From an uncultured Candidatus Marinamargulisbacteria bacterium (lineage in GTDB: Bacteria; Margulisbacteria; Marinamargulisbacteria; CAZFTP01): a stretch of 64,000 bases of DNA. Positions 16,987-63,271 of this stretch are shown piece by piece. The position numbers and the translations under genes were made by a program. The first letter of the stretch is position 1. The number at the start of each line of letters is the position of its first letter. Under the pieces are notes generated by a model that saw only the letters and a program-made list of their open reading frames with translations, did no database searches and was not told the origin of the DNA. The stretch is from contig CAZFTP010000002.1 in the NCBI GenBank assembly GCA_964521915.1, positions 159,675-223,674 on the forward strand, written 5' to 3'.

Positions 16987-17060
16987 CGGTTTAAAATAAC
17001 CTACAGCATTTTATTTAATTTTTTTTAAAACAATTATATAATAGTAAAAAGAAAATCGAT

Positions 17061-17381
17061 ATGAAAAAAAATCAACAAATTAACATAAAAAAAATAACCC
17101 AAAAAATAATTGCGAAATTTAATCCAAAACTTATTTATTTATTTGGTAGTTATGCTAAAAATAACAATACTCCAAATAGTGATTTAGATATTTTAATAAT
17201 TGATGAAAAAGCTGAAAAAGAAGATTTGGCTTTACAAATAAGTTTAGAATTTTTTCCCAGAAATTATCATATGGATTTACTTGTTTATATGCCAATTGTT
17301 TTTGAAGATAAGCTAAAAAATAAATCTCCTTTTTTTAATGATATTATTCTTAATGGAAAAAAACTTTATGAAAGAGCTTGA
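17061..17381 (+). CDS. Minimal nucleotidyltransferase (MNT/MntA-like, antitoxin-type)
   Basis: GSYAKNNNTPNSDLDILI (GSxxxG..SDxD). Confidence 0.8.
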   Translation: MKKNQQINIKKITQKIIAKFNPKLIYLFGSYAKNNNTPNSDLDILIIDEKAEKEDLALQISLEFFPRNYHMDLLVYMPIVFEDKLKNKSPFFNDIILNGKKLYERA

Positions 17382-21796: not shown

Positions 21797-21846
21797 TATC
21801 TTAATGTTAGGTTTTAGTTTTGCCAAAATTTTTAACGAATAAATTC

Positions 21847-36488: not shown

Positions 36489-37013
36489 ATGGAAAAAAAA
36501 CTTGTTATGGTTGTTGAAGATGACGAAATGATGGCTAAGCAATTAATTAATATTATTAAAGATTTTTTTACTTATCATCGACAATATGATGTTATTTGGG
36601 CTAAAAATGGGTTAGAGGCTTTAGAATTATATCGTAAAAATAAGGTTTGGTTTGGCTTTAAACAAAATAGAATTAAATGTATTTTACTTGATTTACGTAT
36701 GCCGGAAATGGATGGCGTACAATTTGTAACTCAATTACGTAAAATTGAAGAAAAAAACATTTTTGCTCAATTTATACCAGTTCTGTTTATTACTGCTTGG
36801 GAGGATAAAGAAAAATGGGAAAGTGCTATAGATTCTTTTGTTTCTGGTTATATTAAAAAACCGGTTGAACCTGAATCTCTAAAAAATTTACTTTGGAAAA
36901 TCCTATATAATAAGGATGCAGAAATACTTACGGAAAAAACTAAAAAACAAGCTTTAAAAAAGTATCAAGAATTCAATCAAAAAGGAAAACCTAAACAAGT
37001 TGCGGAAAACTAA
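36489..37013 (+). CDS. Stand-alone receiver-domain response regulator with short C-terminal tail
   Basis: VVEDDE, phospho-acceptor context ILLDLRMPEMDG, FITAW, KKP. GGAGG Shine-Dalgarno sequence. Confidence 0.85.
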   Translation: MEKKLVMVVEDDEMMAKQLINIIKDFFTYHRQYDVIWAKNGLEALELYRKNKVWFGFKQNRIKCILLDLRMPEMDGVQFVTQLRKIEEKNIFAQFIPVLFITAWEDKEKWESAIDSFVSGYIKKPVEPESLKNLLWKILYNKDAEILTEKTKKQALKKYQEFNQKGKPKQVAEN

Positions 37014-39129
37014 TTATAAAAGAGGTACCCATATTTAAATTGGTTTCTACTTTAATATTAGCCTTGTGGTTAAGTACTATTTGATTAACAATACTTAACC
37101 CTAAACCATGTCCATCTGTAGTATTGGTGGTAAAATAAGGTTCCCAAATTTTTTCTAAATTTTCAGGCGATATCCCTTTACCGTTATCACTAATTTTTAA
37201 AACAATATTTTTAGTATTACTATCAAAAAAAGTATTAATAATTATTTTGCCATTTATTTGCGGCAATGCATTAATAGCATTATTTAATAAATTTAAAAGT
37301 AGGCTTATTAAATCAGTTTTATTACCTGAAATTAAAGGTATATTTGTTAAATTTGTTTCTAAACTAAAACCGCTTGGCGGTTTTAGTTCTATAACTTCTT
37401 TTATTAGGTCATTAAAATTTAAAGGTTCCTGCTTTTTTTCTGTTACTGAACCAAGTTCAATACTATTATCAATAACTTTAAGTGCTCTACTTGTTTGAAT
37501 ATCAATTAAATGCATAAAATCTTGAATATCGGAATTAGAAATATTTTGTTTCTTTTTTAAATTATAATTCGCCATATTAATAGTAAAAAGGGGACTTCTT
37601 AATTCATGATTAGTATTTAAAGTAACTCTGGCTAAACTAGCGTTTTTTTCTGATCTTAGTAATTGTAATTGCGTTTGGTATAATTTTTCTTTATTTTTTT
37701 GAAATTCCTGCTCAATTTTTTCATATGGGGTGAGTTTATAAAATACAGCGTTAATATTATTAATTAACATTTTAAAAAAGTTAAGATCTTCCTTTTTATA
37801 AACAGCTTGGTTGCTTCTTTCACCTATAATCACTAAGCCTTCTAAAATCTCAGGTGAATGAAATGGTAATACACAGGCTTTTTTGTTAAACCCTAAATTG
37901 ATGATTTCTTTTTTAATTTCTGAATCTAAATATTTAAATAAACTCGTAACCGTAATATTGTGAAAATAATTAATTAAAGGATGATCAATCTGGATTGCTT
38001 TTTCCTGCAATACATTTTTATTCATTACTTTAGTAGTAACATCAATCTCATAATCAATTTCTCTTAATAAATAGCTGACTGAAACATCCTGCAGTGACAT
38101 TTTTACATCATCATTTTTCCTTTGAGCAAAAATCACCAGACTTTTTTCCAGCTCTAATTCGTTGTAAAGTTTTTCGTCAATAATTTCAAAAATTTGACTG
38201 CAGTTGTCCGTATTCCCGGCAAGTTCGGTAATCTGAACCAAAAGTTTATCGGCGTCGTAGTAGCCACGAATAAATTTATGTTTTATTCCTGTAATTAAAT
38301 ATTCTTGTATATCCTTGCCAAATAAAACTGAAATTAAACCTAAAAAAATCATCCAACAAATAAGAAAAAAAGAATTATGACCTAAAAAATATACAGAAAA
38401 ACCAAAAATAGGAATAACAAAACAAGAAACAATAAATATCGCGGTTGTATTTTTAATAACAACCTTGATATCCATTAGTTCATGTTTGGTTACAGCTATA
38501 GCCGTTAGAAGTAAATATATAAAAACAAAATAATTTGCTACTGGATAAAAACTTATCCCAAATACTGGCAAATAAGTTGTTGAGCCTCCAGTAAAACCAA
38601 TTAATGTAGCAATAGAAAAATAAAACACTTGTTTTTTTCTATGTCCACCTAGTTTTTTGTAAAATTTAATTAATAAATAGCAACCATAAAAAACACCCCA
38701 AAAAAAGAACATTAAAAAAACAGGATATAGTAAACCCGCTTGAGTATAATAATTAAAAGACATTATAGGCATTACACCTTTAATAAATAAATTTGTTGGG
38801 ATTAATAAAAGAAAAATGAAGCTTGATAAATAAAGAATAAAAACTGTTCTTTTTTTTTGCTTATTCAATCCTAGAATAGAAACAACAAAATGATAGTAAG
38901 AAGAATGAAGAAAAACTACCCCAATATGCAATATTTTAGCCCAAAATAAACCAGAGGCTTGATTTAAAGCCGTTACTTCTAAAGATAGCCCTGTGCTCCA
39001 AATTACTGAAGCTAATGCTAACAATGCAAATGATTGATTAATAACGTTTTTCGGATTTCTTATTAGAACATAGCCCCCAAGTATAATGGCAAATATAGAT
39101 GTAAGATATGAAGTTAATTCAAAAAACAT
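36991..39129 (-). CDS. Sensor histidine kinase with N-terminal 7TM-type membrane domain
   Basis: About 7-9 predicted TM helices ending in AVTKHELMDIKV (HisKA_7TM-like); H-box NHELRSPL; N box LLNNAINAL; G boxes DNGKGI and GHGLGLSIV. Confidence 0.85.
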   Translation of the reverse strand: MFFELTSYLTSIFAIILGGYVLIRNPKNVINQSFALLALASVIWSTGLSLEVTALNQASGLFWAKILHIGVVFLHSSYYHFVVSILGLNKQKKRTVFILYLSSFIFLLLIPTNLFIKGVMPIMSFNYYTQAGLLYPVFLMFFFWGVFYGCYLLIKFYKKLGGHRKKQVFYFSIATLIGFTGGSTTYLPVFGISFYPVANYFVFIYLLLTAIAVTKHELMDIKVVIKNTTAIFIVSCFVIPIFGFSVYFLGHNSFFLICWMIFLGLISVLFGKDIQEYLITGIKHKFIRGYYDADKLLVQITELAGNTDNCSQIFEIIDEKLYNELELEKSLVIFAQRKNDDVKMSLQDVSVSYLLREIDYEIDVTTKVMNKNVLQEKAIQIDHPLINYFHNITVTSLFKYLDSEIKKEIINLGFNKKACVLPFHSPEILEGLVIIGERSNQAVYKKEDLNFFKMLINNINAVFYKLTPYEKIEQEFQKNKEKLYQTQLQLLRSEKNASLARVTLNTNHELRSPLFTINMANYNLKKKQNISNSDIQDFMHLIDIQTSRALKVIDNSIELGSVTEKKQEPLNFNDLIKEVIELKPPSGFSLETNLTNIPLISGNKTDLISLLLNLLNNAINALPQINGKIIINTFFDSNTKNIVLKISDNGKGISPENLEKIWEPYFTTNTTDGHGLGLSIVNQIVLNHKANIKVETNLNMGTSFIISFPQLV

Positions 39130-39142
39130 ATTTATTTTTTTA

Positions 39143-40399
39143 TTAGTCCTTATCTCTTAGTTTAGCATGAGCATCCATATAATTATCCTTAGGGAAAGCA
39201 GAACAAATTGAGATTTCACCTGCTAGAAGAGTTGCCGCAATAATTTCAGCAAATTTTTTTGCTCCTCCTATTCCAGCACAGCCTAATATTTCTAAACATT
39301 CTTTTTGAGTTGCTAATGAAGTTCCTCCTCCAATAGTCCCAATTACTAAATTAGGCGCCTTTATTGATATATACAGATCTCCATTTTTGGTTATTTCGCA
39401 GGTACTAATACCTATAGATGAATTAACAATACTTGCCACATCTTGACCACAAGCTATAAAAATAGCAGCTAACGCATTAGCAAATTGGCCATTCATACCT
39501 ATCATACCCCCAAGAGTTGTACTCAAAATTACAGTTTGATAGTATTGATAAATTTCTTCTGCAGATGAATTTAAATACCTATTAATAATTTTTTGAGGTA
39601 ATAAAACAGATGCAGAAACATTCTTCCCATAAGTGTCAGTAAAATTTACGGCCGAAACTTTTTTATCAGAAGAAAAATTTGAACGTAAATAATATTTTTT
39701 CACAGGATACTTTTCAACGATATAACGCGAGGCTTCTCGTGTTGCAATATTTATCATATTTAATCCCATAGCATCACCGGTATAATATTTAAAAGTTAAT
39801 ATAACCTTATTACCAATAATACGAGATATAACATTTTTTAATTTACCATATTTTGTTGTTTTTTCAGCAATAGATTTAATTACAGCTAGATGTTCGCCTA
39901 ACCATAAAACAAAAGCATTAGCTTCTGATAATGTATCAAAAAAGAAGATAGGTGATGTACTTATTTCATCTTCATGGATCACAACTTCTGCTCCGCCGGA
40001 TTTAGTTATTGCAATCATTCCTCTAGTATAAGCTTTCACCAAAACACCTTCAGTTGTAGCAAATGGCACATGAAAATTTCCTTTAGCGTATTTACCATTA
40101 ATTTTTAATGGGCCTGCTAGACCGACAGGAACTTGAGCAACACCAATGAAAGTTTCTATATTATTTTTATAATTCTGACTGTCATCAGAAAAATTATTCA
40201 AATGCTTTATTTTAATATTCCTATTTTGTTCTAACCATTTTAATCGTAAAAATACATTTTCTTTTTTATGATCATTGTATCCATAATTGGGTATTCTTTC
40301 CTTTATTAAAGAAAAAGTAGTTTCTTCAGCATTTACTATAGTTTTTAAATCATTATTTGAATCTAATTTAATTTCTTTTTTATTGTATATAGTATCCAA
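39143..40399 (-). CDS. Class I HMG-CoA reductase-like NAD(P)H oxidoreductase (orphan)
   Basis: ATTEGVLVKA (catalytic Glu), SSDKK (Lys), GDAMGLNMIN (Asp), GTIGGGT, C-terminal MDAHAK (His). 13 nt upstream of the kinase start. Confidence 0.8.
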   Translation of the reverse strand: MDTIYNKKEIKLDSNNDLKTIVNAEETTFSLIKERIPNYGYNDHKKENVFLRLKWLEQNRNIKIKHLNNFSDDSQNYKNNIETFIGVAQVPVGLAGPLKINGKYAKGNFHVPFATTEGVLVKAYTRGMIAITKSGGAEVVIHEDEISTSPIFFFDTLSEANAFVLWLGEHLAVIKSIAEKTTKYGKLKNVISRIIGNKVILTFKYYTGDAMGLNMINIATREASRYIVEKYPVKKYYLRSNFSSDKKVSAVNFTDTYGKNVSASVLLPQKIINRYLNSSAEEIYQYYQTVILSTTLGGMIGMNGQFANALAAIFIACGQDVASIVNSSIGISTCEITKNGDLYISIKAPNLVIGTIGGGTSLATQKECLEILGCAGIGGAKKFAEIIAATLLAGEISICSAFPKDNYMDAHAKLRDKD

Positions 40400-40516
40400 A
40401 ATTCACACCTTCAAAAAAAATAATGAATGAAATTATAAATAGTACCTATTAAAATAGCATACGAACTTCTTTAATTAATCGCACAAAAACAATAAGAATT
40501 TCAACTTTTATTTATT

Positions 40517-40771
40517 TTAATAGCGGAAATTTTTACAAAGTGCTTGTTTTCTGAAATTAATTATACAATAATTTGCATTAAGAAACAAAAAATTTATTAA
40601 ATAGAAAAAATCACCGAATGTCCAAATTGACCAACTAAAAATAAATAACGAGAAAACTATATTTTTCTTACTATTTCTATTATGAATTAAAACCATTGCG
40701 CCTAGAAGTAAATTAGCAATAGACGCAACTAATGGTGATACTCTACTATAATTGATTATTAGTTCTAGCAT
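40517..40771 (-). pseudogene. N-terminal fragment of a 7TM sensor kinase paralogue
   Basis: LVASIANLLLGAMVLIHNRNSKKNIVFSLFIFSWSIW aligns with the N-terminus of the 36991-39129 kinase (LTSIFAIILGGYVLIRNPKNVINQSFALLALASVIW). Only 84 aa, with no kinase core. Confidence 0.55.
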
Positions 40772-40783
40772 GAAATTACCTAA

Positions 40784-42184
40784 TTAAATTATATTTAAAT
40801 TTTTGCCTATTTTCTCTATTTTATCAATAGTAAAATTAATTTGTTTTTCAGTATGTCCGGCTGAAACAATAAACCTTAACCGTCCTTTACCCTTCTTAAC
40901 AGCTGGGTAAGAAATCCAATTGGTAAAAACACCATTTTTAAAAAGTTCTTTACACATAGTCGCCAAATCTTGTTCATTATCAATGTAAATAGGAACTATT
41001 GGACTACTGCTTTTTCCTACATTAAAACCTAAATTTTTTATAGAATTTCTAAATTTATTTGTATTAGACCATAATTTTTGTTTTAGTTTTTTATCTTTTT
41101 GAATAATATTTAAGGCTTCTAGACATGCCGTAATATCTGCTGACGGTAAAGATGCTTGAAATAAATATGAGTTTGCAGTATGCCTTATAAAGGTTGCGTA
41201 TTCTTTTTTACAAGCAATAATTCCACCAATTGAACCAATGGCTTTGCTTAAAGTTGTCATAATAAAATCAACTTGATCTAAACAACCTAAATGAGCTGAT
41301 AATCCGTTTCCTTTTTCTCCATAAAAACCAAAAGAATGAGCTTCATCTACATATAAATAAAATTTATATTTTTCTTTTAATTTACAATATTCTTTTAATG
41401 GAGCTTCTTCACCTGACATACCATAAACTGATTCCGTAATAACAAAAATATTTTCATATTGACCTGAAGGTATCCGTTTTAATATTTGTTCTAAAGAATT
41501 AGCATCATTATTTTTAAAAGTTCGGAAATTTGTACCTGAAAGTTTTACCCCTTCAATAATACTAGAATGACATTCTTTATCAAAAATAATTAAATCATGT
41601 TTATCTGCAATAGCAGAAATAACGCCAAGATTTGTCGTAAAACCAGTTGGAAATAGAATAGCGGCTTCTTTATTAAAAAATCGGGCAAATTCACTCTCTA
41701 ATTGATTATGTAATGAACTAAATCCACCTGAAACTGCCGAAGTTCCACAACCAACGCCATTAATATCAATAATTTTTTTGGCATTTTCTAATACTTGAGG
41801 ATGACGATTTAAACCTAAATATAAATTAGTGCACCAGATAATACATTCATTCTCATTACTTTTATTGGGTGTCATAATACTAGCTGAGAAATTACTACCA
41901 TTTTTCAAGAATCTATCTAAAGTATATATTTCTAATTTTTTTTGTAATTGAGTTATTTCATATGTAAAATTAGTTTTTTGATCAAAATTTGTAATATTAT
42001 ATTGTTTTAAATTTCTGGCAATACTTAAAGGATGAATATTTTGAGCAAGTTTTTTTAAATATTTAATATTATTTTTCTTTATTATCTTAAATGTTTCTTT
42101 TTCAGCATTAACAATTTTTTTATTTATATTTTGAATTTTTGTTTGAGCAATATCAATTTCAGAAGAATTTTGTTTCAAATTCAT
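40784..42184 (-). CDS. PLP-dependent alpha-oxoamine synthase family enzyme (BioF/KBL/SPT/CqsA-LqsA family) with ~100 aa N-terminal extension
   Basis: NLYLGL, FPTGFTTNLG, DEAHSFG, PLP-lysine motif TLSKAIGSIGG, GRLRF. GGAGGGG Shine-Dalgarno sequence. Confidence 0.85.
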   Translation of the reverse strand: MNLKQNSSEIDIAQTKIQNINKKIVNAEKETFKIIKKNNIKYLKKLAQNIHPLSIARNLKQYNITNFDQKTNFTYEITQLQKKLEIYTLDRFLKNGSNFSASIMTPNKSNENECIIWCTNLYLGLNRHPQVLENAKKIIDINGVGCGTSAVSGGFSSLHNQLESEFARFFNKEAAILFPTGFTTNLGVISAIADKHDLIIFDKECHSSIIEGVKLSGTNFRTFKNNDANSLEQILKRIPSGQYENIFVITESVYGMSGEEAPLKEYCKLKEKYKFYLYVDEAHSFGFYGEKGNGLSAHLGCLDQVDFIMTTLSKAIGSIGGIIACKKEYATFIRHTANSYLFQASLPSADITACLEALNIIQKDKKLKQKLWSNTNKFRNSIKNLGFNVGKSSSPIVPIYIDNEQDLATMCKELFKNGVFTNWISYPAVKKGKGRLRFIVSAGHTEKQINFTIDKIEKIGKNLNII

Positions 42185-42352: not shown

Positions 42353-42547
42353 AAAGGCAAGAAGGCACAAGGTTTAGCTCTAAGGCTCGAACTCAAACCC
42401 TCACCCCAACCCTCCTCTCACACGAATGGGAGAGGGCGTTTTTTGAAAAAAGACAAGAGTTTACCCTTACTTAGTGCAGAAATAAAATAAAAAATGAGTT
42501 TTCCCCCAAAAGATAGGTCGGAGATTTTAAGCCCGCCCGGCAGGGAT
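42353..42547. repeat. Mosaic GC-rich repeat cluster
   Basis: aaggcaagaaggcacaaggtttagctc (as at 4641); ccctcaccccaaccctcctctcacacgaatgggagaggg (partial copy of the pdxA element, followed by a T-run); ccaaaagataggtcggagattttaagcccgcccggcaggg (half of the 19841 stem-loop, and related to 60191-60212). Confidence 0.85.
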
Positions 42548-42604
42548 TCTAAACATAGATATATTTATATTTCTTTTTTTAGTAAAATATGAAATAATTT
42601 TTTT

Positions 42605-42994
42605 ATGTACGAAGAAATAGCTAAGAAATGGTATAAACAGGCTAATCATGACTTATTAATGGCGGAAAAAAATTTAGAAATTGAAGGATATGATGTTAGT
42701 GCATTTTTAACACAACAAGCAATAGAAAAATTTTTAAAAACAATTTATTTATTAAGAAATAAAAAAATACCAAGAACGCATTATTTAGATGATTTAATTA
42801 GAGAGTTAAATTTATCTGATGAAATTTTAGATTTAGCAAATGATTTAACGGCAGATTATACATTAGCAAGATATCCTGATATTTCTGATTTAACACCTTA
42901 TGAAGAATATAATGAAGAAATAGCGTTAGAAAAATTAAATATAGCAAAACAAATTTATGATAAAATAAGTGCTGAATTTAAAGGTTTAAAATGA
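42605..42994 (+). CDS. HEPN-domain protein (HepT-like toxin candidate)
   Basis: QQAIEKFLKTIYLLRNKKIPRTHYLDDL (HEPN Rx4-6H region). Overlaps the downstream MNT gene by 4 nt. Confidence 0.75.
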   Translation: MYEEIAKKWYKQANHDLLMAEKNLEIEGYDVSAFLTQQAIEKFLKTIYLLRNKKIPRTHYLDDLIRELNLSDEILDLANDLTADYTLARYPDISDLTPYEEYNEEIALEKLNIAKQIYDKISAEFKGLK

Positions 42995-43317
42995 ATAATA
43001 ATTTTAAGGATAAAGTAATTAATCAATTTATTAAAGAAGTAATCCCAATTCTTAAAAAAGAGATAAAGCCTGAGGAGATATTATTTTTTGGGTCAAGAGT
43101 TACTGGTGAAGCAAAAGAAGAATCAGATTTAGATGTAATTTTAATTTCAGAATATTTTAAGAATATACCATTTATTAAACGTATGCCACTCGTATTAAAA
43201 AAAATAAAATTCAATAAGCATGTTGATATTTTATGTTATTCTCAAGATGAATTTGAACGTATTAAAAAAACATCTTCTATTATAGAAAATGCATTGATTT
43301 TTGCAAAACAATACTAA
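42991..43317 (+). CDS. Minimal nucleotidyltransferase (MntA-like antitoxin candidate)
   Basis: GSRVTGEAKEESDLDVILI. Confidence 0.8.
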   Translation: MNNNFKDKVINQFIKEVIPILKKEIKPEEILFFGSRVTGEAKEESDLDVILISEYFKNIPFIKRMPLVLKKIKFNKHVDILCYSQDEFERIKKTSSIIENALIFAKQY

Positions 43318-43359: not shown

Positions 43360-43650
43360 GCCCCAAAAGAAGATGATAAATTTTTACCGGTTTCCCTTGC
43401 TTCCATTATTGCAAAAACACGTAGAGATGCCGAAATAATAAGGCTTTGTGAATCAATTAATGAACCCTATATTTCTGGTTATCCGAATAAAAAAACTGCT
43501 GAATTTTTATATAATTATTATAATAAGTACAATAAATTAGTGCCTCAGATTAGAAAAAGTAGAAACTGGGAACCTCTACAAAAGTTATTACAGGAAGAAA
43601 ATAATGTAGGGACGCGATTTATCGCGTCCGCAGAATCTAAAATTATCTAA
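43360..43650 (+). pseudogene. Start-less 3' remnant of rnhB (direct repeat copy 2 at 43372-43590)
   Basis: Encodes EDDKFLPVSLASIIAKTRRDAEIIRLCESINEPYISGYPNKK...WEPLQKLL, then a different tail QEENNVGTRFIASAESKII. An in-frame TAA at 43357-43359 lies immediately upstream, and there is no N-terminal catalytic region. Confidence 0.9.
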
Positions 43651-44363
43651 GATGATTTTTTGAAATCTACCATTGGTACACCATTAACGTATTCATCAAT
43701 TACAATATTTTTCATTTTACTTAAAGAATCCATGATAGTTCTAATTCTTCTGGCACAGTTTATTACTTCATTTACAACTTTTTTTTCTGCCGGTTTATCA
43801 GCAAACATACTTTTCAATAATTGCGACCCTAATAATATAGTTGTTAACGGATTTCTTATTTCGTGATGTAAAGAAACATATATTTGTTTTAAAAGTAATT
43901 CTTTTTCTTTTTCTATAATTTTAGTTTGATTTTCAGTTAGATTTTTTTCATTACCAGCTATATCAACAGCCATAGCTTTTAAATTATCTTTTTCTCTTTT
44001 AAATCTTAAAATTAACTCAACCCGTAATAGTAATTCTTCTGTAATATAAGGTTTTGTAATATAATCATCAGCCCCAATTTCAAAACCTTCTTTTTTAGCA
44101 GAAATTTCTTCTAAAGCAGTTACAAAAATTACTGGTATTTCTTTGGTTTTAGGATTACTTTTAATCTTTTTACAAATATCAAAACCATTTTCACCAGGTA
44201 AGAAAATATCGAGTAAAATTAAATCTGGATTTTCTTTTTCAATTAGAGTAAGCCCTTTTTCACCATTTTCCGCAGATATAACAGTAAAGCCAGCATCTTC
44301 TAAAGTCATTATAGCAAGTTCTAGATTCATTTTATCATCTTCAATAATTAATATTTTTTCCAT
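43647..44363 (-). CDS. Receiver domain fused to a HisKA/DHp domain, without an ATPase domain
   Basis: IIEDDK, LILLDIFLPGENG, FVTA, KP; then H-box SLHHEIRNPLTT. The protein ends about 70 aa later with no N/G boxes. Confidence 0.75.
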   Translation of the reverse strand: MEKILIIEDDKMNLELAIMTLEDAGFTVISAENGEKGLTLIEKENPDLILLDIFLPGENGFDICKKIKSNPKTKEIPVIFVTALEEISAKKEGFEIGADDYITKPYITEELLLRVELILRFKREKDNLKAMAVDIAGNEKNLTENQTKIIEKEKELLLKQIYVSLHHEIRNPLTTILLGSQLLKSMFADKPAEKKVVNEVINCARRIRTIMDSLSKMKNIVIDEYVNGVPMVDFKKSS

Positions 44364-45346: not shown

Positions 45347-47968
45347 ATGCGTAATATCTATTTTTTTAATAATAATTTTGGCTTAGAGCAAGTAGGGGGA
45401 AAAGGTTTATCTTTAATTAAAATGACGCAGGCAGGTTTACCTGTACCGCCCGGTTTTATTTTGGCAACAGATTTTTTTCTTCCCTGGGAAGAAGAGTTAA
45501 AATCATTGGCAGAATGGAAAAAAACAGATCTTAGAAAAAACTTATCAGAATTAATAGACGCTTTGAAAAAAGCGTCTCAAAATTTAAAGTTAACCAAAGA
45601 TCAAAAAGAAGAATTAAATAAGGCATTAAGTGATTTTCCTGAAGCAAAGGATATGCTTTTCTCCGTAAGATCATCTTCACCCGAAGAAGATTTGGCAGGT
45701 GCTTCTTTTGCCGGAATCTATGAAACTGTTTTAGGCGTAAATCTGGAAAATATAGAAAAAGCTATTTTAACGGTTTTTCAATCTCAATTAGATTTAAGAG
45801 CTTTTGAATATAAATATCATCATGGGTTTGATATTACTAAACTTAAAATTGCGGTTATTATTCAAACTCAAATTGCCAGTGAATCTGCCGGAGTAGGTTT
45901 TTCTATTAATCCTCTGAATAATTGTTATGATGAAGTAGTAATTAACGCAAATTGGGGGTTAGGCGAAAGTATAGTTTCCGGTGATGTTACCCCAGATACT
46001 TATTTGATTAATAAATATACCAACGAAATTATATCAAAAGAAGTAGGTTCAAAAACGCAGAGCTATTTTCTTACCAAAAATGGGATTGAAACAAAACAAA
46101 ATAAAAATCCAAAGGATTTTGTTCTTTCAGAAGATAAAATCCTGGAATTAAAAGAATTAATTCTAAAAGTTGAAAAATATTACCAAATGCCTATGGATAC
46201 GGAATGGGCTTTTTACAAAGACACCTTGTTTTTGTTACAAGCTAGACCAATTACAACTTATCTACCGTTACCTCCTAAAATTCTTACTAAACCAGGTGAA
46301 AAACCGCAATTATACTTAGATTTAACCTTAGTAGAGCAAGGTATACAAGGGGCTCTTTCTCCGATAGGAATTAGCTGGTTTGGCGGAATTACCGAAACTA
46401 TGATTTTTGAAGCAACCAATATACCTGATTTAGGATGCGATTTAAAAGATGGGTTAGCAGATTCGGTTGGTGGTAGAACCTATCTAAGTATTTCTAATCT
46501 ATTATGGTTGATGAAGGCTAAAGCTTTAGCGGGTGAATTTGCCAGTCTAGATACTTATGCGGCTAGAATATTAGAACAAATTAATGAGAAAGATTACAAA
46601 TCGATTAAAAAACCTAGTACTTTCAAAGGAATAATATGGAAATCGCTTTATCATACCGGTGGTTTAATGAAAGATACTATGGTGGGTATTATTTTCCCAC
46701 AAAAACTTAATGCCAAATATGAACGTGGTGTAAAACAATATTTAGCAGATGTTGAAGCACTTAAAAAGGAAAAGTTGGATATTCTCAGTTTATACGAAAA
46801 AACCGTGAAACTGGGGGTAGATTTAATGATGAAAATTACGCTACCTACTCTTATGGATGCAGAAATGGCAAAGGCTGAACTTAAATCTATGTTTAAAAAA
46901 GATCCGCAAGAAATTCAAGATTTAGTTGATTGTCTGGATCGTGCTTTACCGAGGAATGTTACTACAGAAATGGGGTTAGCAATTTATCATATGGCAAGGC
47001 AAATAAAACCGCAAGAATATCAAGATTTAGATAAATTAGCTAAAAAAATTGAAGCTAAAGACATGCCTAAGGAATTTCTTGCAGATTGGCAAAATTTTAT
47101 GGCGAAATTTGGTTTTAGGGGTCCAAAAGAAATCGATGTTTTATCCGAAAGATATATGGATAATCCGATAATTTTATTAAATCAAATGGCAAATTTTGCA
47201 GAAATTAAGGATGATAAACTAAATCCTCAAGCTCAGTTTGAAATTAAAGCCAAAGAAAGAAAAGATGCCTATGAAAAACTTTTGGAATATACTAAAAAAC
47301 ACCTGATTAAAAATAAAATTTTCAAGAAAATGTATAAAATCCTGGAAGAATTTGGCGGTTTAAGAGAAGTTCATAAATACTACCTGGTAATGATAAATCA
47401 TTATTTAAGAATAAAGCTATTAGAAGAGGGTGCTAAATTAGTTAAATTAGGTAGATTAGATAAACCGGAAGATATTTTTTATCTTTATATTAATGAATTG
47501 AGAGAAGGGCTTGAACATCAAGCAACAAACTTGAAAGCACTTGCAAAAGTAAATAAAGAATTTAGTGATAGGTTAATGCAAGTTCCTTCTTTTCCGCCAT
47601 TAGTAGATTCTCGGGGTAGAATTCTTGCTCCGCCAAAAAGAAAAGCCGGTCCTGGCGAATTAATCGGGGATCCGGTAAGTAACGGGGTAATAAAAGGTCC
47701 GGTTAAGATTTTACATACTTCCGATGAAAAGAAAGTGGAACCAGGTGATATTTTGGTTATTAGATCAGCAGATCCGGGTTGGACACCGCTTTTTATTACT
47801 GCCGGTGCGGTAATTCTAGAAGTTGGCGGTATGTTACAGCATGGTTCAATCATTGCCAGAGAATACGGAAAACCTTGTATTGCTGGTATAGATGGGGTCA
47901 TGGATAAACTAAAAGATGGACAAATGGTAGAAGTTAACGGGCAAGAAGGAATTGTAAAAATTTTATAA
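45347..47968 (+). CDS. PEP-utilising / pyruvate-water-dikinase-like enzyme with rifampicin-phosphotransferase-type architecture
   Basis: N-terminal ATP-grasp VGGKGLSLIKMTQAGLPVPPGF; C-terminal swivel His domain DPGWTPLFITAGAVILEVGGMLQHGSIIAREYGKPCIAG. Confidence 0.8.
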   Translation: MRNIYFFNNNFGLEQVGGKGLSLIKMTQAGLPVPPGFILATDFFLPWEEELKSLAEWKKTDLRKNLSELIDALKKASQNLKLTKDQKEELNKALSDFPEAKDMLFSVRSSSPEEDLAGASFAGIYETVLGVNLENIEKAILTVFQSQLDLRAFEYKYHHGFDITKLKIAVIIQTQIASESAGVGFSINPLNNCYDEVVINANWGLGESIVSGDVTPDTYLINKYTNEIISKEVGSKTQSYFLTKNGIETKQNKNPKDFVLSEDKILELKELILKVEKYYQMPMDTEWAFYKDTLFLLQARPITTYLPLPPKILTKPGEKPQLYLDLTLVEQGIQGALSPIGISWFGGITETMIFEATNIPDLGCDLKDGLADSVGGRTYLSISNLLWLMKAKALAGEFASLDTYAARILEQINEKDYKSIKKPSTFKGIIWKSLYHTGGLMKDTMVGIIFPQKLNAKYERGVKQYLADVEALKKEKLDILSLYEKTVKLGVDLMMKITLPTLMDAEMAKAELKSMFKKDPQEIQDLVDCLDRALPRNVTTEMGLAIYHMARQIKPQEYQDLDKLAKKIEAKDMPKEFLADWQNFMAKFGFRGPKEIDVLSERYMDNPIILLNQMANFAEIKDDKLNPQAQFEIKAKERKDAYEKLLEYTKKHLIKNKIFKKMYKILEEFGGLREVHKYYLVMINHYLRIKLLEEGAKLVKLGRLDKPEDIFYLYINELREGLEHQATNLKALAKVNKEFSDRLMQVPSFPPLVDSRGRILAPPKRKAGPGELIGDPVSNGVIKGPVKILHTSDEKKVEPGDILVIRSADPGWTPLFITAGAVILEVGGMLQHGSIIAREYGKPCIAGIDGVMDKLKDGQMVEVNGQEGIVKIL

Positions 47969-47987: not shown

Positions 47988-49160
47988 CTAATTTATGAAA
48001 TTAGTAATTAAGTTTTGGATTTCTCGCCAGCAAATAATGGCGGTTTGATTTCTTGTATAGGATTCTTCGCCACCATAAATGATGCCACGATTTTGAATTT
48101 TATATTTTAGAGTTTTTAAGAAATCTAAACCTTTAAAGAAATCAGGATTTATAGTTCTTGCGGCTTTTATCTCTATAGCATTTATCTGAATAACCTTGTC
48201 AAAGATAACATCAACTTCATGACCGGCATGATCGCGAAAGAAAAAGAGATTTTCCATTAATACTCGATTATAAATGATTTTTAAAATTTCACTGATTACA
48301 TAAGTTTCAAAAATAGACCCAAATAAAGGGTGATTATTAAGTTGTTCAGGTTTTTTTATATTTAATAAACAACAAACTAAGCCAGTATCATAAAAAAATA
48401 ATTTAGGTGCTTTTACGTAACGTTTATTTTGTTTTTGATAATAAGGATAAATTATTTTAATAATATAAGAGGCCTCTAAAATAGAAAGCCAGTTTTTTAC
48501 GGTTTTTTGATCTATGCCAATATCATTTGATATGGAACTATAGTTTAAGATTTGACCGGTTCTACCCGCAATTAACTTCAAAAAGATTTCAAATACGGAT
48601 AAATCCTTTATATTTATTAGGTTACGTAAATCTCTTTCGATATAGGTATTAATATAAAACATTAAAGCTTCAGTTGGGTTTAAATTTTCTTTAAAAATTC
48701 GGGGATAGAATCCCTTAAATAAAACTTCTGTTAAATTAATTGTTTTATTATTGTGATAGATTTCTTGGTAACTAAAAGGTAAAAGTTTAATTAAAGCGGT
48801 TCTTCCGGCAAGGGATTGAGTTAAATTAGACATAATTTCAAATTGTTGACTACCAGTTAAAATATATAAGCCATTTTTTTGTTTTGCATCAACAATAGTC
48901 TGGATATAAGAGGTTAAAGCAGGTGCTTTTTGGATTTCATCAAAAACAGCTCCATCCGGATATTGAGATAAGAACCCTTTAGGGTCATTATTCGCAAAAT
49001 CACGTTGATCTAAATCTTCTAAAGAAATATAGGGTTTATTCGGAAATATTTGTTGGCAAAGAGTGGTTTTTCCTGATTGTCTGGGACCTGTTATGGTTAT
49101 AACTGGATATTGTTTAACAATACTTAAAATTTTTTCCGTAATAGAGCGATTTATTAACAT
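47988..49160 (-). CDS. AAA-type ATPase with DUF4143-like C-terminal domain
   Basis: Walker A GPRQSGKTTL. The size and layout are typical of AAA_14/DUF4143 proteins. Confidence 0.7.
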   Translation of the reverse strand: MLINRSITEKILSIVKQYPVITITGPRQSGKTTLCQQIFPNKPYISLEDLDQRDFANNDPKGFLSQYPDGAVFDEIQKAPALTSYIQTIVDAKQKNGLYILTGSQQFEIMSNLTQSLAGRTALIKLLPFSYQEIYHNNKTINLTEVLFKGFYPRIFKENLNPTEALMFYINTYIERDLRNLINIKDLSVFEIFLKLIAGRTGQILNYSSISNDIGIDQKTVKNWLSILEASYIIKIIYPYYQKQNKRYVKAPKLFFYDTGLVCCLLNIKKPEQLNNHPLFGSIFETYVISEILKIIYNRVLMENLFFFRDHAGHEVDVIFDKVIQINAIEIKAARTINPDFFKGLDFLKTLKYKIQNRGIIYGGEESYTRNQTAIICWREIQNLITNFIN

Positions 49161-49203: not shown

Positions 49204-50928
49204 TTACAGGTTTTTTGATATTCGTTCTAATGCGTTATGTAGTTTGATAAAATTATCCAAATAACAAGCTGATTTGCATAAGCAATTTACACAATTGTTT
49301 ATACTGGTGCATCTTGGTAAGGGTAACCCAGAAAATTTTCTGGGTTTAATTTCCAGGGGATCATTATTATAGAAACTTGCGTAATTATGGTTAATTAAAT
49401 GTGTAAAATAATTACCATATTTAAACAACCAAAAATGATCTTCAAGTATTTCTAGTATTTCATTTTTAGTTTTCTTATTTAGTTTGAGTTCGCAATATTT
49501 GGCTAATATAGCTTTTAAATCAAATACCCCATATGTATCTTTTTTGATAACTTTTAAAGCTAATTCATAGTTTTTGACTTCCAAAAAAATGAAACACATA
49601 AATATTTCGGCTTCAATATTAAAATTGACAGGGATACGTAAAAATAGATTTTGTAACTGATCTCTAATTTTTTTAGTAAAGAGAAAAGAAGTATTTAGCC
49701 GTTTAGCTAAAATACCAGCTAGTTGTGATATTTTTTGGAAACTAGTTTTATCATCAATTTCACAAATGGTATTAATAATCTGATCAATTACTTCTGTGCA
49801 ATAAAAGTATTCGTCTTTATTTAGCGGTTGAGGTGCAGACATACCAGAGATATAAATATAATAAGACGGGAAACCTAAAAAAGAGAAGTCTTTTACATAA
49901 ATTTGGTGTTTATTTTTTGATAAATGATTCAGTAAGAATTGAAGATAAAATTTGTTTGATTCGTTAGTTTTGGTAAAAGCGGTTTTATAATTAGGTTTTT
50001 GATTATTAATCAGAAGTAAATTAAGTAAATTTTCCGGATTGTTAAAAATATCAATTTCTACATTTATCTTTTTTAGATATTGAGAATAGCAATGCCATAA
50101 AGATTTAGTACCTTGATATATTTCGGTTATACAACGAGTAAGCGCTATTTCAAAAACAGGGTCAGATCCAAAAGCTATACCAAATACGTCTTTTTGATGG
50201 TCTATGATTATTACCGCTAAAACCGGAATTTTTCCGTTTAAAGTGCAATCTTTTATAATTATTTCTAATTTTTTTTCTTTTAATTCGTTTAATAATTTAA
50301 TCGTAATTTGGTCTGTAATTGGTAAATTTTCAAGTGGAATATTTGGAAAAGATTTTATTTTTCCTAAAGCGAAATCACGAATAATAAACCGTTCCATAAT
50401 TTCACAAATACCTTGGCATAAGGCTTCTTCTTTGGTATTTCCAGCGCACATACCAGTACTTCCGGTAGAATTTAACATTAAATAATACGGTAGAGTAACT
50501 ATTTTGTATTCAAAAACAGATTCAAATGTTAAACAGGGTAATTTTTCAAGAATGACATTTTCTTCTATTAATTCCGAAAATAATTCAGGAAATTCATTTT
50601 TTAGTTTCTTAGCGTTTTGCCAAGAGAAATCAGGGTGAAAATAGTTTTTGGGTATAATCTTACCCACTTGACCTAGCCATTCATGGGTATAGCATTGTAA
50701 ACGTTCCATAAATTCAGCATAGGCGCTGGCTAATGCTAGTTCTTTGGTAAGCCCTTTTCCGTTAGCATAGATTAAAGGATATTCATTACAGATTAAGTGA
50801 CAAGAATAGCAATGATTATAAGAATGAAAAAAAATAGGTTCTTTTTGAAAAGTAATACCAAGATCAGCTAAAATTTTTTTAATTTTTGCAATAGTTGTTT
50901 TAGGTTTAGCATCTTTATGTTGATTCAT
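49204..50928 (-). CDS. ycaO: YcaO-family protein (E. coli-like stand-alone type)
   Basis: ANGKGLTKELALASAYAEFMERL and GMCAGNTKEEALCQGICEIMERF. Confidence 0.8.
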   Translation of the reverse strand: MNQHKDAKPKTTIAKIKKILADLGITFQKEPIFFHSYNHCYSCHLICNEYPLIYANGKGLTKELALASAYAEFMERLQCYTHEWLGQVGKIIPKNYFHPDFSWQNAKKLKNEFPELFSELIEENVILEKLPCLTFESVFEYKIVTLPYYLMLNSTGSTGMCAGNTKEEALCQGICEIMERFIIRDFALGKIKSFPNIPLENLPITDQITIKLLNELKEKKLEIIIKDCTLNGKIPVLAVIIIDHQKDVFGIAFGSDPVFEIALTRCITEIYQGTKSLWHCYSQYLKKINVEIDIFNNPENLLNLLLINNQKPNYKTAFTKTNESNKFYLQFLLNHLSKNKHQIYVKDFSFLGFPSYYIYISGMSAPQPLNKDEYFYCTEVIDQIINTICEIDDKTSFQKISQLAGILAKRLNTSFLFTKKIRDQLQNLFLRIPVNFNIEAEIFMCFIFLEVKNYELALKVIKKDTYGVFDLKAILAKYCELKLNKKTKNEILEILEDHFWLFKYGNYFTHLINHNYASFYNNDPLEIKPRKFSGLPLPRCTSINNCVNCLCKSACYLDNFIKLHNALERISKNL

Positions 50929-50939
50929 TTATTTTAATA

Positions 50940-52949
50940 TTAAAGCTTAAATAAAAAAGTTAAACCAAAGTTTTTTATTGGTTTTAGTTTAGATTTATTA
51001 ACAAATTCAGCTGTTTCCGGACGAGCTAAAATAAGTAAATAGTTAATATTTTTTTTTCTTAATTCAACGATCATTTGGTTAATATCAGATAAAGCTAAAA
51101 TAGAATTAAAAGATTTGTTTAATATTTTTCCATTTTTAATTTCATGCGCTCCAATTCTGGCAAATAGAGTATTAGCCCTGGAATTCCCTCTTATAAATGA
51201 ATAATAATTGCGGTCAGTACCCCATTCTTGAGAAATTGGTGTAATATTAGCTACTAAATCGTCTTTTTTTATGATTTTTTCTAAATACCTGCACATTCTA
51301 ATATCAGAATGATTAATAAAAACACTTACCGGTGTAAGATGAAAACCAGGAGCAAGAAAAAACAACCAAATTAGAATAAACAAAATAAAAAAAGATTTTT
51401 GAAATTGCGGGAAATGAGTTATTAAAATTTTGTAGCCTAAGCCTACAGATAAAATCCAAATGCCTATTACACTAAAAGAGGCTTGAAACGTTGCGGTAAA
51501 ATGATACGGGGCTGTTGAGCCAAATAAACCATTAATCAGGTTAGCCCCTAAAAACCAAGTGATTAATAAAAAAAGAGGGAAAAATTGCTTTTCTTTTTCT
51601 TGCCAATAATATTTATATCCAAATAAAGCCAGAAAAAGAAAAATAAAGAAAAAAGAAAGATAAAAGGTATCGTTATTTAACCACCGTAATAAGTTATTAA
51701 TAAAAATGGTAGGGGTAAGATCTTTTAAAAGCATAGCTGGTTGGCTAAGATATAAAGTTTGTCCAGATCCCAACCAAATAATATAAATAATACTTAAGCA
51801 AAGAATAATCCCTCCCCAGATAAAATGAAAATGTCTTTCTTTTTTTATGATATTTTTCATAAAGTTAACCAGAAAAACTAATAAAAAAGGCAAAGAAACA
51901 ATCGGATGCACAATTATACCGGCAGATAAAATTAATAAAGCGAGATTTATTTTCTTTGTAATAAGAAAATAAATCATTTGTAGCCCTAAAAAATAAGCTA
52001 ACATTTCTTGAACCTGACCACCTGTTAAACCATAATATCCGGTAATAGTTAAATTTAGAGAAAAGAGAAGAATAATAAAAATATTTAATTTAAACAAACG
52101 TGCTAAGTTTCTAATAGCCATAATGAGTAAAAAATAACTTAAAAACCAAATAAGCAATAAAGCTTCACTGGCTCTTAAATTTAATAATTGAGCAATACCC
52201 CAACCAAAGGAGCTTAAACCAGCAGGGTATCTGATAAAAAACCATTCATCGTAATAGCCGGTACTAGCATGATGAAGTGTTTTACCTTGAAAAATATAAC
52301 CCATTATTTCTGATTGGGTAGTTATATCCGCATCTGGCGGAGCAGGTGTGAACAAATAAGGTGCTAAAGGGAGTAAAATAACCAATAGTAAAATTAAGTA
52401 TTCTGGTTTCAATAAGGATTTTAAAAAATTAAAAATAGAAGGGAAATTTAATTCATCTTTTAAAATTTTATTTCCAACAAAGATAATAATAACAGTAGTA
52501 GTAACAATAAAATGAATAATAATTGTTGGTCTATTTAATAAATAATTTAGTTTTAAGAATACACTGAAAAAACTAATAAGTAGAACGAAAACTAAGCCTA
52601 AAGTTAATTTATTAATAGAATTAGAAGTGTTAATAAAAAAATCACCTATTTTGTAGAAAATTATTAGTAGAATAGTAATATCCGCAATAATACTTAATAA
52701 GCCAAGAGGGGTATCGTATGCATACATAAAAAATGTTCTCATTAAAAAAGGAGTAATGAAAAAAAGAAACATGATAGTTAATAAATAATATTTTTGAAAT
52801 TTTTTCGGAATGATAATAAATAGTAAAGTTAAACAAATAATAATCAAAGTCAAAAAACTGAAATTGGTAATAAATAAATTAATTCTTTCTCCTAAACTAG
52901 GGTTATTTATAAAAGGTTGGAAAAAAGAAAAATTTAAAAGAGTTTTCAT
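50940..52949 (-). CDS. Polytopic membrane protein, possible GT-C-fold glycosyltransferase
   Basis: More than 12 hydrophobic segments and an operon context with GT2 and another GT-C-like protein. No catalytic motif verified. Confidence 0.45.
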   Translation of the reverse strand: MKTLLNFSFFQPFINNPSLGERINLFITNFSFLTLIIICLTLLFIIIPKKFQKYYLLTIMFLFFITPFLMRTFFMYAYDTPLGLLSIIADITILLIIFYKIGDFFINTSNSINKLTLGLVFVLLISFFSVFLKLNYLLNRPTIIIHFIVTTTVIIIFVGNKILKDELNFPSIFNFLKSLLKPEYLILLLVILLPLAPYLFTPAPPDADITTQSEIMGYIFQGKTLHHASTGYYDEWFFIRYPAGLSSFGWGIAQLLNLRASEALLLIWFLSYFLLIMAIRNLARLFKLNIFIILLFSLNLTITGYYGLTGGQVQEMLAYFLGLQMIYFLITKKINLALLILSAGIIVHPIVSLPFLLVFLVNFMKNIIKKERHFHFIWGGIILCLSIIYIIWLGSGQTLYLSQPAMLLKDLTPTIFINNLLRWLNNDTFYLSFFFIFLFLALFGYKYYWQEKEKQFFPLFLLITWFLGANLINGLFGSTAPYHFTATFQASFSVIGIWILSVGLGYKILITHFPQFQKSFFILFILIWLFFLAPGFHLTPVSVFINHSDIRMCRYLEKIIKKDDLVANITPISQEWGTDRNYYSFIRGNSRANTLFARIGAHEIKNGKILNKSFNSILALSDINQMIVELRKKNINYLLILARPETAEFVNKSKLKPIKNFGLTFLFKL

Positions 52950-52972
52950 TATTTATATTTTAAATCTCGTTT

Positions 52973-62708: not shown

Positions 62709-63271
62709 TAGTCTAACCTTTCCGGTAATTTATCCGGAGATAATATAATCTTAGTTCTGCCAGAGGTAATAATTTTTTTCTTTTTAATTAAAATTATGAT
62801 GGTATCCCCTGTTAACCGATCAACCCCTTGCCAGGCTTTGGCATTACCAATTAAAGAAAGTTTTTCTTGTTTTAAATCGTAAACAGCTTTATCTGAACTT
62901 GCTTCAATATCGTCTAATTTAAAATTTAAATCTCCAGTAGCAATAATAATTTTTTTATTAAAGTCAGCATCTAAATGGTCACAAGTTATAATGGCGTTAT
63001 CTTTAATTAGTTTTATATCTTGCAGTAATTTTACCTTTTTTTGTTTAGTAAAGTAAATAGCTTTTTTGCTAACAATTTTAATATCTTTAGTTTCTGCAGT
63101 TACATTTCCTTCAGCAGTAATTTGGTTTTTAATTCCATCATAAATTAAAGAATCTGCATTCAGAATTATATCATCGTTTTTAGCAAAACTTGTTAAGGGG
63201 AAAATCGTCACAGCTGTGATTATAATTAATAAAAAAGTAAGCAGATTAAATAGATATTTTTTATTCATCAT
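62708..63271 (-). CDS. lptA: LptA/OstA-family periplasmic protein
   Basis: Signal peptide, then repetitive beta-strand OstA-like sequence (ADSLIYDGIKNQITAEGNVT, ITCDHLDADF, IEASSDKAVYD). Confidence 0.6.
   Translation of the reverse strand: MMNKKYLFNLLTFLLIIITAVTIFPLTSFAKNDDIILNADSLIYDGIKNQITAEGNVTAETKDIKIVSKKAIYFTKQKKVKLLQDIKLIKDNAIITCDHLDADFNKKIIIATGDLNFKLDDIEASSDKAVYDLKQEKLSLIGNAKAWQGVDRLTGDTIIILIKKKKIITSGRTKIILSPDKLPERLD

Follow-up and report, generated by a model that had tools for sequence, protein, structure and literature searches.

The 64,000-nucleotide (nt) window analyzed here, taken from contig CAZFTP010000002.1 of an uncultured Candidatus Marinamargulisbacteria bacterium, carries at positions 36489-42184 a signalling locus in which genes for an alpha-oxoamine synthase (AOS) and for an enzyme resembling hydroxymethylglutaryl-CoA (HMG-CoA) reductase (HMGR) accompany a sensor histidine kinase and a stand-alone receiver. 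We read this locus as two side-by-side cassettes, each combining an enzyme with a seven-transmembrane (7TM) sensor of the HisKA_7TM family and each enzyme making the ligand of its own sensor; taken whole, this reading stands evenly balanced between true and false. The structural and evolutionary description of the locus alone, which comes directly from gene content, conserved pairings, subtype co-variation, mosaicism and fusions, we hold with high confidence. That the enzyme product is the ligand, and the chemistry of that product, are what we infer beyond it, and the first of these claims, on its own, falls slightly short of an even call. The first cassette would consist of the AOS gene followed by an AOS-type HisKA_7TM sensor reduced to a 57-residue stump, and the second of the HMGR-like reductase gene followed by a kinase with an HMGR-linked 7TM domain on an AOS-type core, together with a convergent receiver of the AOS type. 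The components are as follows.

40784-42184, minus strand: AOS, dependent on pyridoxal phosphate (PLP), 466 amino acids (aa); Pfam Aminotran_1_2, 165 bits.
40517-40771, minus strand: 84-aa open reading frame (ORF), stump of an AOS-type 7TM sensor; our own 7TM hidden Markov model (HMM), E = 3.3e-12.
39143-40399, minus strand: HMGR-like class-I enzyme, 418 aa; PF00368 (HMG-CoA_red), 362 bits.
36991-39129, minus strand: sensor histidine kinase, whole gene, 712 aa; HisKA_7TM, 60 bits, and HATPase_c, 76 bits.
38425-39129, minus strand: kinase residues 1-235, HisKA_7TM domain of the HMGR-linked subtype, as judged by blastp and AlphaFold2.
36991-38424, minus strand: kinase residues 236-712, GAF/PAS-like middle region plus DHp and catalytic domains, as judged by blastp identities.
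36489-37013, plus strand: stand-alone receiver of the AOS-cassette type, 174 aa; Response_reg, 72 bits.

On the minus strand, AOS is followed by a 12-nt gap, the 84-aa ORF, 117 nt, the reductase, 13 nt and the kinase, with 385 nt separating AOS from the reductase on the same strand, and the receiver converges on the 3′ end of the kinase gene, overlapping it by 23 nt. All ORF coordinates given in the initial annotation of this locus were reproduced in the sequence, as were the kinase start 13 nt past the reductase stop and the overlap of the convergent receiver. The reductase gene starts with TTG, 6 nt downstream of an AAGGTG ribosome-binding site, and scans for promoters and terminators yielded no operon-defining signal above shuffled expectation.

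The evidence for two cassettes comes from the relatives of the two enzymes. Genomic contexts of the reductase subfamily were compared in 12 independent loci (L001, L002, L005, L011-L015, L056 and L170-L172), which span phyla, the metagenome-assembled genomes (MAGs) being labelled Omnitrophota, Nitrospirota, Planctomycetia, Spirochaetales and Ca. Makaraimicrobium; many homologues, about 50% identical, come from MAGs labelled Omnitrophota, Elusimicrobiota, Nitrospirota and others. In 11 of the 12 loci, the gene immediately downstream of the HMGR-like gene encodes a HisKA_7TM kinase and starts −7 to +66 nt from the reductase stop; the corresponding count among more distant bacterial class-I HMGR loci is 0 of 73 (Fisher p = 5.6e-13). 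Likewise, a 7TM protein is encoded directly downstream of AOS in 7 of 8 independent close relatives (about 50% identity or more; range 49-56%), as a kinase in L008, L009 and L092-L094 and as a PP2C phosphatase in L006, and L096 displays the same arrangement of AOS followed by a 7TM sensor. In most of the wider AOS clade (42-47% identity), the synthase gene is followed by kinases with 4-6 transmembrane helices, often hybrids of HisKA-HATPase-REC-REC-Hpt architecture that precede a receiver-HD-GYP gene. The 7TM domains sort by partner enzyme: the median blastp score is 119 bits within the HMGR-linked group and 178 bits within the AOS-linked group, compared with 48 bits (maximum 72) between the two. 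Furthermore, locus L174 carries a tandem comprising an AOS-type 7TM protein (P0249), a 166-aa 4HBT_2 hotdog thioesterase and a kinase (P0244) in which a 7TM domain of the HMGR-like subtype is joined to the same cytoplasmic core as in the window kinase; the hotdog thioesterase here takes the place of the reductase before the same 7TM subtype.

These pairings bear on the simplest alternative, namely that a housekeeping AOS (BioF, KBL or SPT) and a mevalonate-pathway HMGR happen to lie beside a two-component system. Both proteins score strongly on general family models, as chance adjacency would have it, yet the adjoining of 7TM sensors is conserved across phyla (p = 6e-13 as rounded) and neither protein reaches a curated equivalog cut-off. 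The AOS attains 334 bits on the Kbl model of NCBIfam (cut-off 460), 333 on the SPT model (cut-off 640), 330 on the BioF model (cut-off 426), 274 on the ALAS model (cut-off 339) and 218 on the CqsA-type model NF005526 (cut-off 428), which on these scores would place it outside BioF, KBL, SPT and ALAS. Five of its relatives score 201-209 bits on NF005526, in each case lower than their own SPT, Kbl and BioF scores. The catalytic motifs described previously, DEAHSFG and TLSKAIG with the PLP lysine K314, are intact, as are D280/H283 and every clade-invariant residue, and a clade-specific N-terminal extension of about 100 aa is common to relatives at ≥50% identity, with a GAF domain in some members. 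The earlier argument against a housekeeping BioF or SPT thus stands, based on the missed cut-offs and the systematic proximity of the clade to genes for membrane sensor kinases. Moreover, no bio, mevalonate, methylerythritol phosphate or sphingolipid genes were found among the approximately 48 ORFs scanned across the 64 kb, in line with the reported lack of bioA, bioB, bioD, mevalonate and sphingolipid genes nearby. We regard chance adjacency as barely credible.

The ORF between the two enzyme genes had been proposed to be a kinase N-terminal fragment, which agrees with the match of its residues 5-57 to our 7TM HMM (E = 3.3e-12); its tail is unrelated. In phmmer searches the stump matched AOS-linked sensors with E = 5e-11 to 1e-6 and HMGR-linked sensors only with E ≥ 1.6e-3, and produced no match to the window's own kinase, 1.4 kb away. 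Because it resembles AOS-linked sensors and not the adjacent kinase, the stump is the remnant of the sensor that once belonged to AOS, and since only 117 nt separate it from the reductase gene, about 2 kb of that sensor gene is missing.

The surviving kinase carries the H-box HELRSPL (H508), the N box NNAINAL and the G1/G2 boxes DNGKGI and GHGLGL, and its HisKA_7TM score (PF16927) is 60.2 bits against a gathering score of 28.6. Its residues 1-235 give 99-165 bits in blastp against HMGR-linked kinases and 25-56 bits against AOS-linked sensors. For the middle domain (residues 236-480), by contrast, the nearest homologues are those of the AOS-linked L008 (108 bits, E = 6e-30) and L009, with HMGR-linked kinases at ≤37 bits. 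The middle domain shares 55% identity with P0242 and 49% with P0249, both of which have 7TM domains of other types. Taken with the kinase domain, its identity to P0242 is 50-55%, whereas the 7TM domain is 43% identical to that of P0257, a 7TM-GAF-HD-GYP protein, and 27% to that of P0242. The identities flip at about residues 215-240, the conserved end of helix 7 with the motif TKHELMDIKVVIK, and the cytoplasmic core is common to AOS-linked sensors and to sensors with a third 7TM type. The kinase is thus a mosaic in which an HMGR-type 7TM domain is joined to a core that elsewhere bears AOS-type 7TM domains. The AlphaFold2 model of residues 1-250 (pLDDT 86, pTM 0.81) comprises seven helices, with residues 116-131, which lie between helices 4 and 5, forming a beta-hairpin, and the full-length model places a GAF/PAS-like domain at approximately residues 310-466, before the DHp and catalytic domains. 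A Foldseek search with the 7TM model retrieved only G-protein-coupled receptor (GPCR) bundles (CaSR, E = 3.5e-4; TRHR, TM-score 0.59; 11-15% identity), a predicted resemblance that is only a generic bundle likeness, compatible with a possible ligand pocket in the membrane.

The receiver retains the acidic pocket EDD, the acceptor Asp in LLDLRMP and the conserved Lys in YIKKP, so that kinase and receiver carry the full set of two-component signature residues. Its best match is the receiver beside AOS in L096 (44% identity, 135-140 bits), followed by the L009 receiver, which converges on an AOS-linked kinase (40%, 105-112 bits); all other receivers score ≤38 bits. Since the same convergent, overlapping layout recurs in L009 and L092 as well, the receiver is of the AOS-cassette type.

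In the L174 tandem the first sensor (P0249) is intact, and the arrangement in the window could thus have been derived either by a deletion of about 2 kb inside the first sensor of such a tandem or by in-place replacement, in which the 7TM region of the first sensor would have been swapped for a donor piece consisting of the reductase gene and its 7TM domain. A simple origin as a recent chimera was softened, given that L174 presents tandem cassettes sharing one kinase core. On the sequence comparisons above, an enzyme gene and its 7TM domain behave as one evolutionary unit, with the cytoplasmic core being interchangeable.

The same observations bear on the model put forward in the initial annotation, according to which AOS and the HMGR-like reductase act successively in one pathway, yielding an amino-ketone or amino-alcohol lipid sensed by the adjacent 7TM kinase. 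The two intact genes are close neighbours on the same strand, no convincing terminator separates them, and functional coupling could have arisen in this lineage after the loss of the AOS sensor. Both enzymes also carry, before their catalytic domains, the short motif V-N-A-E-x-x-T-F-x-[LI]-I-K (VNAExxTFxxIK), at residues 25-36 of AOS (window positions 42080-42120, minus strand) and 22-33 of the reductase (40300-40340, minus strand); a similar one is seen in close AOS relatives, and other HMGR-like proteins lack it. The motif may serve as a docking peptide or have arisen by chance in a K/N/I-rich proteome. However, AOS and HMGR-like genes were never found together in the loci compared, of which 12 belong to the HMGR subfamily and about 9 to close AOS relatives (about 21 in all). 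The neighbourhood comparison that had been suggested for synthase and reductase revealed no conserved linkage between them, each being linked instead to a 7TM sensor of its own subtype, and the stump between the genes is a dead sensor of the AOS type. Nor does the chemistry fit: HMGR-type enzymes reduce thioesters, not ketones, and the product of an AOS is a ketone, which argues against the supposition that the HMGR-like enzyme supplies a reduction step on the AOS product. A single biosynthetic pair sensed by one kinase is thus not supported, and a single pathway is improbable.

The reductase itself has the catalytic features of a class-I enzyme: the catalytic Glu/Lys/Asp/His set, previously described as intact, is present as E117, K246, D320 and H411 (human E559, K691, D767 and H866), together with the DAMG and GGGT cofactor motifs, and its best solved relative is the archaeal HMGR 6hr7 from Methanothermococcus (302 bits). 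On the class-I HMGR model TIGR00533, the protein scores 334.8 bits, under the cut-off of 441.8. In the human enzyme, the HMG moiety is contacted by R590, S684, D690, K691, K692, K735 and N755 (PMC9500038). At the position of R590 the window reductase has Thr, with L/I/V in 90% of the subfamily; Arg replaces S684, and K735 is not kept (T/Q). We dropped these pocket residues as proof against HMG-CoA, given that other bacterial class-I HMGR homologues are heterogeneous at the same positions and that the change of S684 to Arg may be compensatory. In a neighbour-joining tree, the reductase clade clusters with a Solirubrobacterales class (L018, L022, L023, L025, L028, L038 and L046) and with L035 (Bdellovibrionia), and these clustered classes have in common the change of R590 to a hydrophobic residue and of S684 to Arg (I590/R684 in the sister class). 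Five neighbourhoods of the Solirubrobacterales class were scanned. In three of them, from Solirubrobacterales/Actinomycetes MAGs, the HMGR-like gene is directly followed by a wax-ester synthase/DGAT gene (L038, 11138-12544) or adjoined by a gene for a DAGAT-like acyltransferase (L028, 11798-13015) or for a protein resembling NAD-epimerases and fatty-acyl reductases (L025, 8613-9641), which hints at an HMGR-fold enzyme that reduces fatty acyl-CoA to the alcohol.

Mevalonate genes are absent from the 64-kb window and from the surrounding 10 kb or so at each of the 12 subfamily loci. Together with the missed curated cut-off and the ties of the clade to signalling, this agrees with the earlier placement of the reductase outside a mevalonate context. 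Mevalonate genes had been expected as neighbours at the "canonical" bacterial class-I HMGR loci, but the families most often encountered there were LuxR-type regulators, PPDK_N-like proteins, ketosynthases, DUF3419 and UbiA, which weakens the contrast with the reductase subfamily. One of these neighbour types is also present in the window, where an 873-aa protein with PPDK_N and PEP-utilizers domains, an architecture like that of rifampin phosphotransferase, is encoded at 45347-47968 (plus strand), about 5 kb from the reductase gene. PPDK_N-like homologues (E = 1e-26 to 1e-63) occur within a few kb of a non-7TM class-I HMGR in 13 loci (L027, L035, L039, L041, L047, L052, L055, L061, L065, L082, L085, L087 and L088) from Bacteroidota, Planctomycetota, Verrucomicrobiota, Cyanobacteria and others. 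No literature mention of a linkage between HMGR and PPDK_N-like proteins turned up in searches that were not aimed at it; the linkage may mark an unrecognised step after the reductase.

The ties of the reductase clade to signalling are not limited to the downstream kinase. N-terminal extensions of at least 84 aa are present in 49 of 129 subfamily members (about 38%), being mostly a receiver (about 125 aa), a PilZ domain or a hotdog domain (4HBT_2 or AfsA-like). Both motifs for binding cyclic di-GMP (c-di-GMP), RxxxR and [DN]xSxxG, are retained in 5 of the 6 PilZ fusions checked, and the acidic pair, acceptor Asp, Thr and Lys in all 3 receiver fusions checked. A receiver-HD-GYP gene follows the kinase gene in L002, and several bare receivers are encoded near HMGR-type cassettes in L056 and L170. 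Judging from these sequences, the HMGR-like subfamily is widespread in uncultured bacteria and wired into both phosphorylation and c-di-GMP signalling. Because hotdog domains are fused to some HMGR-like proteins or encoded nearby (a hotdog thioesterase two genes upstream in L001), an acyl-thioester substrate is indicated. Other neighbours fit a hydrophobic ligand: the gene just upstream of the cassette in L002 and L014 encodes an outer-membrane channel of the FadL/TodX type, and L011 has a ketosynthase and a fatty-acyl-reductase-like gene.

Several points weigh against each enzyme making the ligand of its own sensor. The pairings have exceptions, L171 for the reductase and L091, where an AMP-binding enzyme follows AOS, and the sampling is limited to 12 independent loci for the reductase and about 9 for AOS, all of them from MAGs and metagenome contigs, mostly short ones. 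The GPCR-like fold match is weak, with TM-scores of 0.52-0.59 and a root-mean-square deviation of about 6 Å. The reductase retains the equivalents of D/E690, K691, K692 and N755 and gains Arg at the S684 position, and because this Arg may make up for the loss of R590, HMG-CoA may still be its substrate. A 7TM domain that docks on the enzyme or regulates it would also yield adjacency and co-variation, and the receiver and PilZ fusions show that the enzyme is a signalling output, which does not make it a ligand source.

Indeed, the fusions with intact phospho-acceptor and c-di-GMP motifs are what one would see if the 7TM kinase sensed the state of membrane or lipids or an outside cue, and the HMGR-like enzyme, maybe a true HMGR, were only an output under the control of the stand-alone receiver or of a receiver or PilZ domain fused to it, its product not being the ligand. 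Such homeostasis would also accommodate the receiver-HD-GYP gene of L002 and the conservation of the catalytic tetrad and most polar pocket residues, with Arg684 possibly replacing R590, and it has an analogy in eukaryotic HMGR, which is feedback-regulated through a membrane sensor domain. It sits less well with the score below the curated HMGR cut-off and with the lack of mevalonate genes around the 12 loci and in the window. Furthermore, a hotdog thioesterase can replace the reductase before the same 7TM subtype (L174), and the same architecture recurs with the unrelated AOS, the 7TM subtype changing with the enzyme. Because the subtype tracks the enzyme, ligand specificity explains the pattern more easily than homeostasis does, and we consider homeostasis unlikely, though the most serious of the alternatives.

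Under the two-cassette reading, each enzyme would convert a common acyl-thioester to a hydrophobic molecule that is bound by the cognate 7TM domain within the membrane. AOS would condense an amino acid with the acyl-thioester to an amino-ketone-type product, and the HMGR-like enzyme would carry out a four-electron reduction to an alcohol or aldehyde. The output module (kinase, PP2C or HD-GYP) would then signal, the kinase of the window phosphorylating the single-domain receiver, and in relatives the receiver, PilZ or GAF domains at the N-terminus of the enzyme would provide feedback on ligand synthesis. In the window, the circuit would run from the reductase through its product to the HMGR-type 7TM domain, the AOS-type kinase core and the 174-aa receiver, and would be the only complete one, AOS being intact and left without its own sensor. 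More broadly, and tentatively, HisKA_7TM domains may be widespread receptors with a GPCR-like bundle, each subtype being dedicated to a lipid-like ligand made by the upstream enzyme (HMGR-like enzyme, hotdog thioesterase or AOS) and each enzyme moving with its 7TM domain as a unit among kinase, phosphatase and HD-GYP backbones.

Two side observations concern the cassettes of the relatives. Genes of the LigB/Memo type (AmmeMemoRadiSam family; AMMECR1 in L001) lie no more than a few kb from three independent enzyme-7TM cassettes, possibly by coincidence (L001, 413-1728; L005, 17592-18404; and L006, 11606-12406, the last overlapping the 3′ end of the 7TM-PP2C gene). In L170, DDE transposase genes (1168-2337 and 9230-10585) flank the cluster of receiver-HMGR, 7TM kinase and receivers, a bracketing that would fit a cassette moving as a unit.

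Upstream of AOS, the window contains two further features that adjoin the locus.

43647-44363, minus strand: 238-aa protein that combines a receiver with DHp (HisKA) and lacks an ATPase domain; Response_reg, 98 bits, and HisKA, 35 bits.
42605-43317, plus strand: toxin-antitoxin-type pair of HEPN and minimal nucleotidyltransferase (MNT) genes, overlapping by 4 nt.

The receiver-DHp protein aligns over its full length to the C-terminal two-thirds of an L006 protein encoded four genes upstream of the AOS cassette (E = 2e-25). It is a possible accessory phosphotransfer partner of the AOS-type cassette, of which we infer it to be a member, and it may join the window circuit. The HEPN/MNT pair, located between this gene and AOS, is the only mobile-type element adjoining the locus. 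The GC content over the locus is 0.20-0.35, resembling that of the flanks, and the surroundings are made up of housekeeping genes (rnhB, gltD-like, pdxA, pdxJ, ksgA, lptA and others). There is no sign of an acquired island, and the description of the segment as apparently acquired is not supported. Between the HEPN gene and AOS, the window has its only GC-rich patch (42380-42560), with a GC content of about 38-45% against 26% in the surrounding region. The possibility that it is a riboswitch or another structured RNA was rejected, as Rfam yielded no near-threshold match and the fold z-score was −0.08.

Farther from the locus, the minus strand at 49204-55680 encodes, in this order, a YcaO-domain protein of 574 aa, a protein of 669 aa that matched no Pfam family, a 473-aa fusion of methyltransferase and GT2 domains and a further unmatched protein of 433 aa; these YcaO-led genes may form a modification or biosynthetic cluster. 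A Fic/DOC protein with a helix-turn-helix domain, encoded beside a small ORF (16051-17381, plus strand), and a DUF4143/AAA_14 ATPase (47988-49160, minus strand) are accessory genes, possibly of the defence or addiction type, scattered through a mainly housekeeping region. The window also encodes a surface protein with SLH domains (21820-23724, plus strand) and an LptA-like protein (62708-63271, minus strand). Together with the Margulisiibacteriota names that occur among the closest kinase and AOS homologues, these suggest a diderm akin to Margulisiibacteriota/Saganbacteria, its genome having a GC content of about 28%.

If the enzymes do make the ligands, the cassettes would represent new self-contained chemical signalling in Omnitrophota, Nitrospirota, Elusimicrobiota, Margulisiibacteriota-like and other little-known bacteria. 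They would also offer a testable source of ligands for the HisKA_7TM sensor domain, suggest that a large clade of HMG-CoA-reductase-like enzymes acts outside the mevalonate pathway, and extend the outputs of receiver and PilZ domains to a new enzyme. Should HisKA_7TM domains prove to be a receptor class of this kind, several new families of signal molecules would be expected in mostly uncultured phyla, along with the first signalling role for an enzyme of the HMG-CoA-reductase fold, gated directly by phosphorylation or c-di-GMP. Even under homeostasis, there would be direct two-component and c-di-GMP control of a bacterial HMGR-fold enzyme, which was not found described in the literature searched. 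The mosaic kinase, in turn, is a natural domain swap in which enzyme gene and 7TM domain travel together, and could guide the engineering of sensor kinases.

Among described proteins, class-I HMGRs (human HMGCR and Methanothermococcus 6HR7) share with the reductase the fold, the Glu/Lys/Asp/His set and the DAMG and GGGT motifs. Unlike these, the window enzyme scores below the curated cut-off, is changed at R590, S684 and K735, lacks pathway neighbours and falls in a clade whose defining features are linkage to 7TM kinases and the fusion of receiver, PilZ or hotdog domains to the N-terminus. Both the window kinase and the stump are members of the HisKA_7TM family (PF16927), which in the literature searched is merely listed as a sensor domain, with no ligand or partner named; the pairing with an upstream enzyme and the sorting of subtypes by enzyme, which set these sensors apart, were not found described there. 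Nor did we find a literature precedent for an HMGR-fold enzyme or a hotdog thioesterase in the synthase position of a synthase-sensor pair.

The closest parallels are the CqsA/CqsS system of Vibrio and the LqsA/LqsS/LqsR system of Legionella, in which the gene for an AOS-family enzyme likewise lies beside those for a multi-pass sensor kinase and a receiver. The predicted ligand is, as in those systems, hydrophobic and derived from an acyl-thioester, and in related loci hybrid kinases with 5-6 transmembrane helices come right after AOS. By contrast, the window synthase falls outside the CqsA/LqsA family (218 versus 428 bits) and is nearer to the SPT, KBL and BioF models, it has an additional N-terminal region of about 100 aa, and its own sensor has been destroyed. 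In addition, the HisKA_7TM sensor, with seven predicted helices, is set apart by description from the six-helix CqsS type, and a scan of the 7TM regions against NCBIfam returned only a weak match to the LIC10906 family. The CqsA/CqsS-like logic proposed in the initial annotation is therefore a fair analogy as regards the pairing of synthase and sensor genes, and fails as regards membership of CqsA/LqsA. The Rpf system of Xanthomonas (RpfF, RpfC and RpfG), which is based on the diffusible signal factor (DSF), similarly clusters a thioester-processing enzyme with a multi-pass sensor kinase; its receiver-HD-GYP component has counterparts in the relatives L002 and L104, and PilZ domains on HMGR-like relatives tie the present system to c-di-GMP as well. 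It differs in that the enzyme is a crotonase rather than an HMGR-like, hotdog or AOS enzyme, in the sensor family and in that the window encodes a bare receiver and not an HD-GYP protein. Thus, membership of these systems fails, and what the locus would share with CqsA/CqsS and LqsA/LqsS/LqsR, and in the relatives with HD-GYP also with Rpf/DSF, is the logic of a synthase paired with its sensor.

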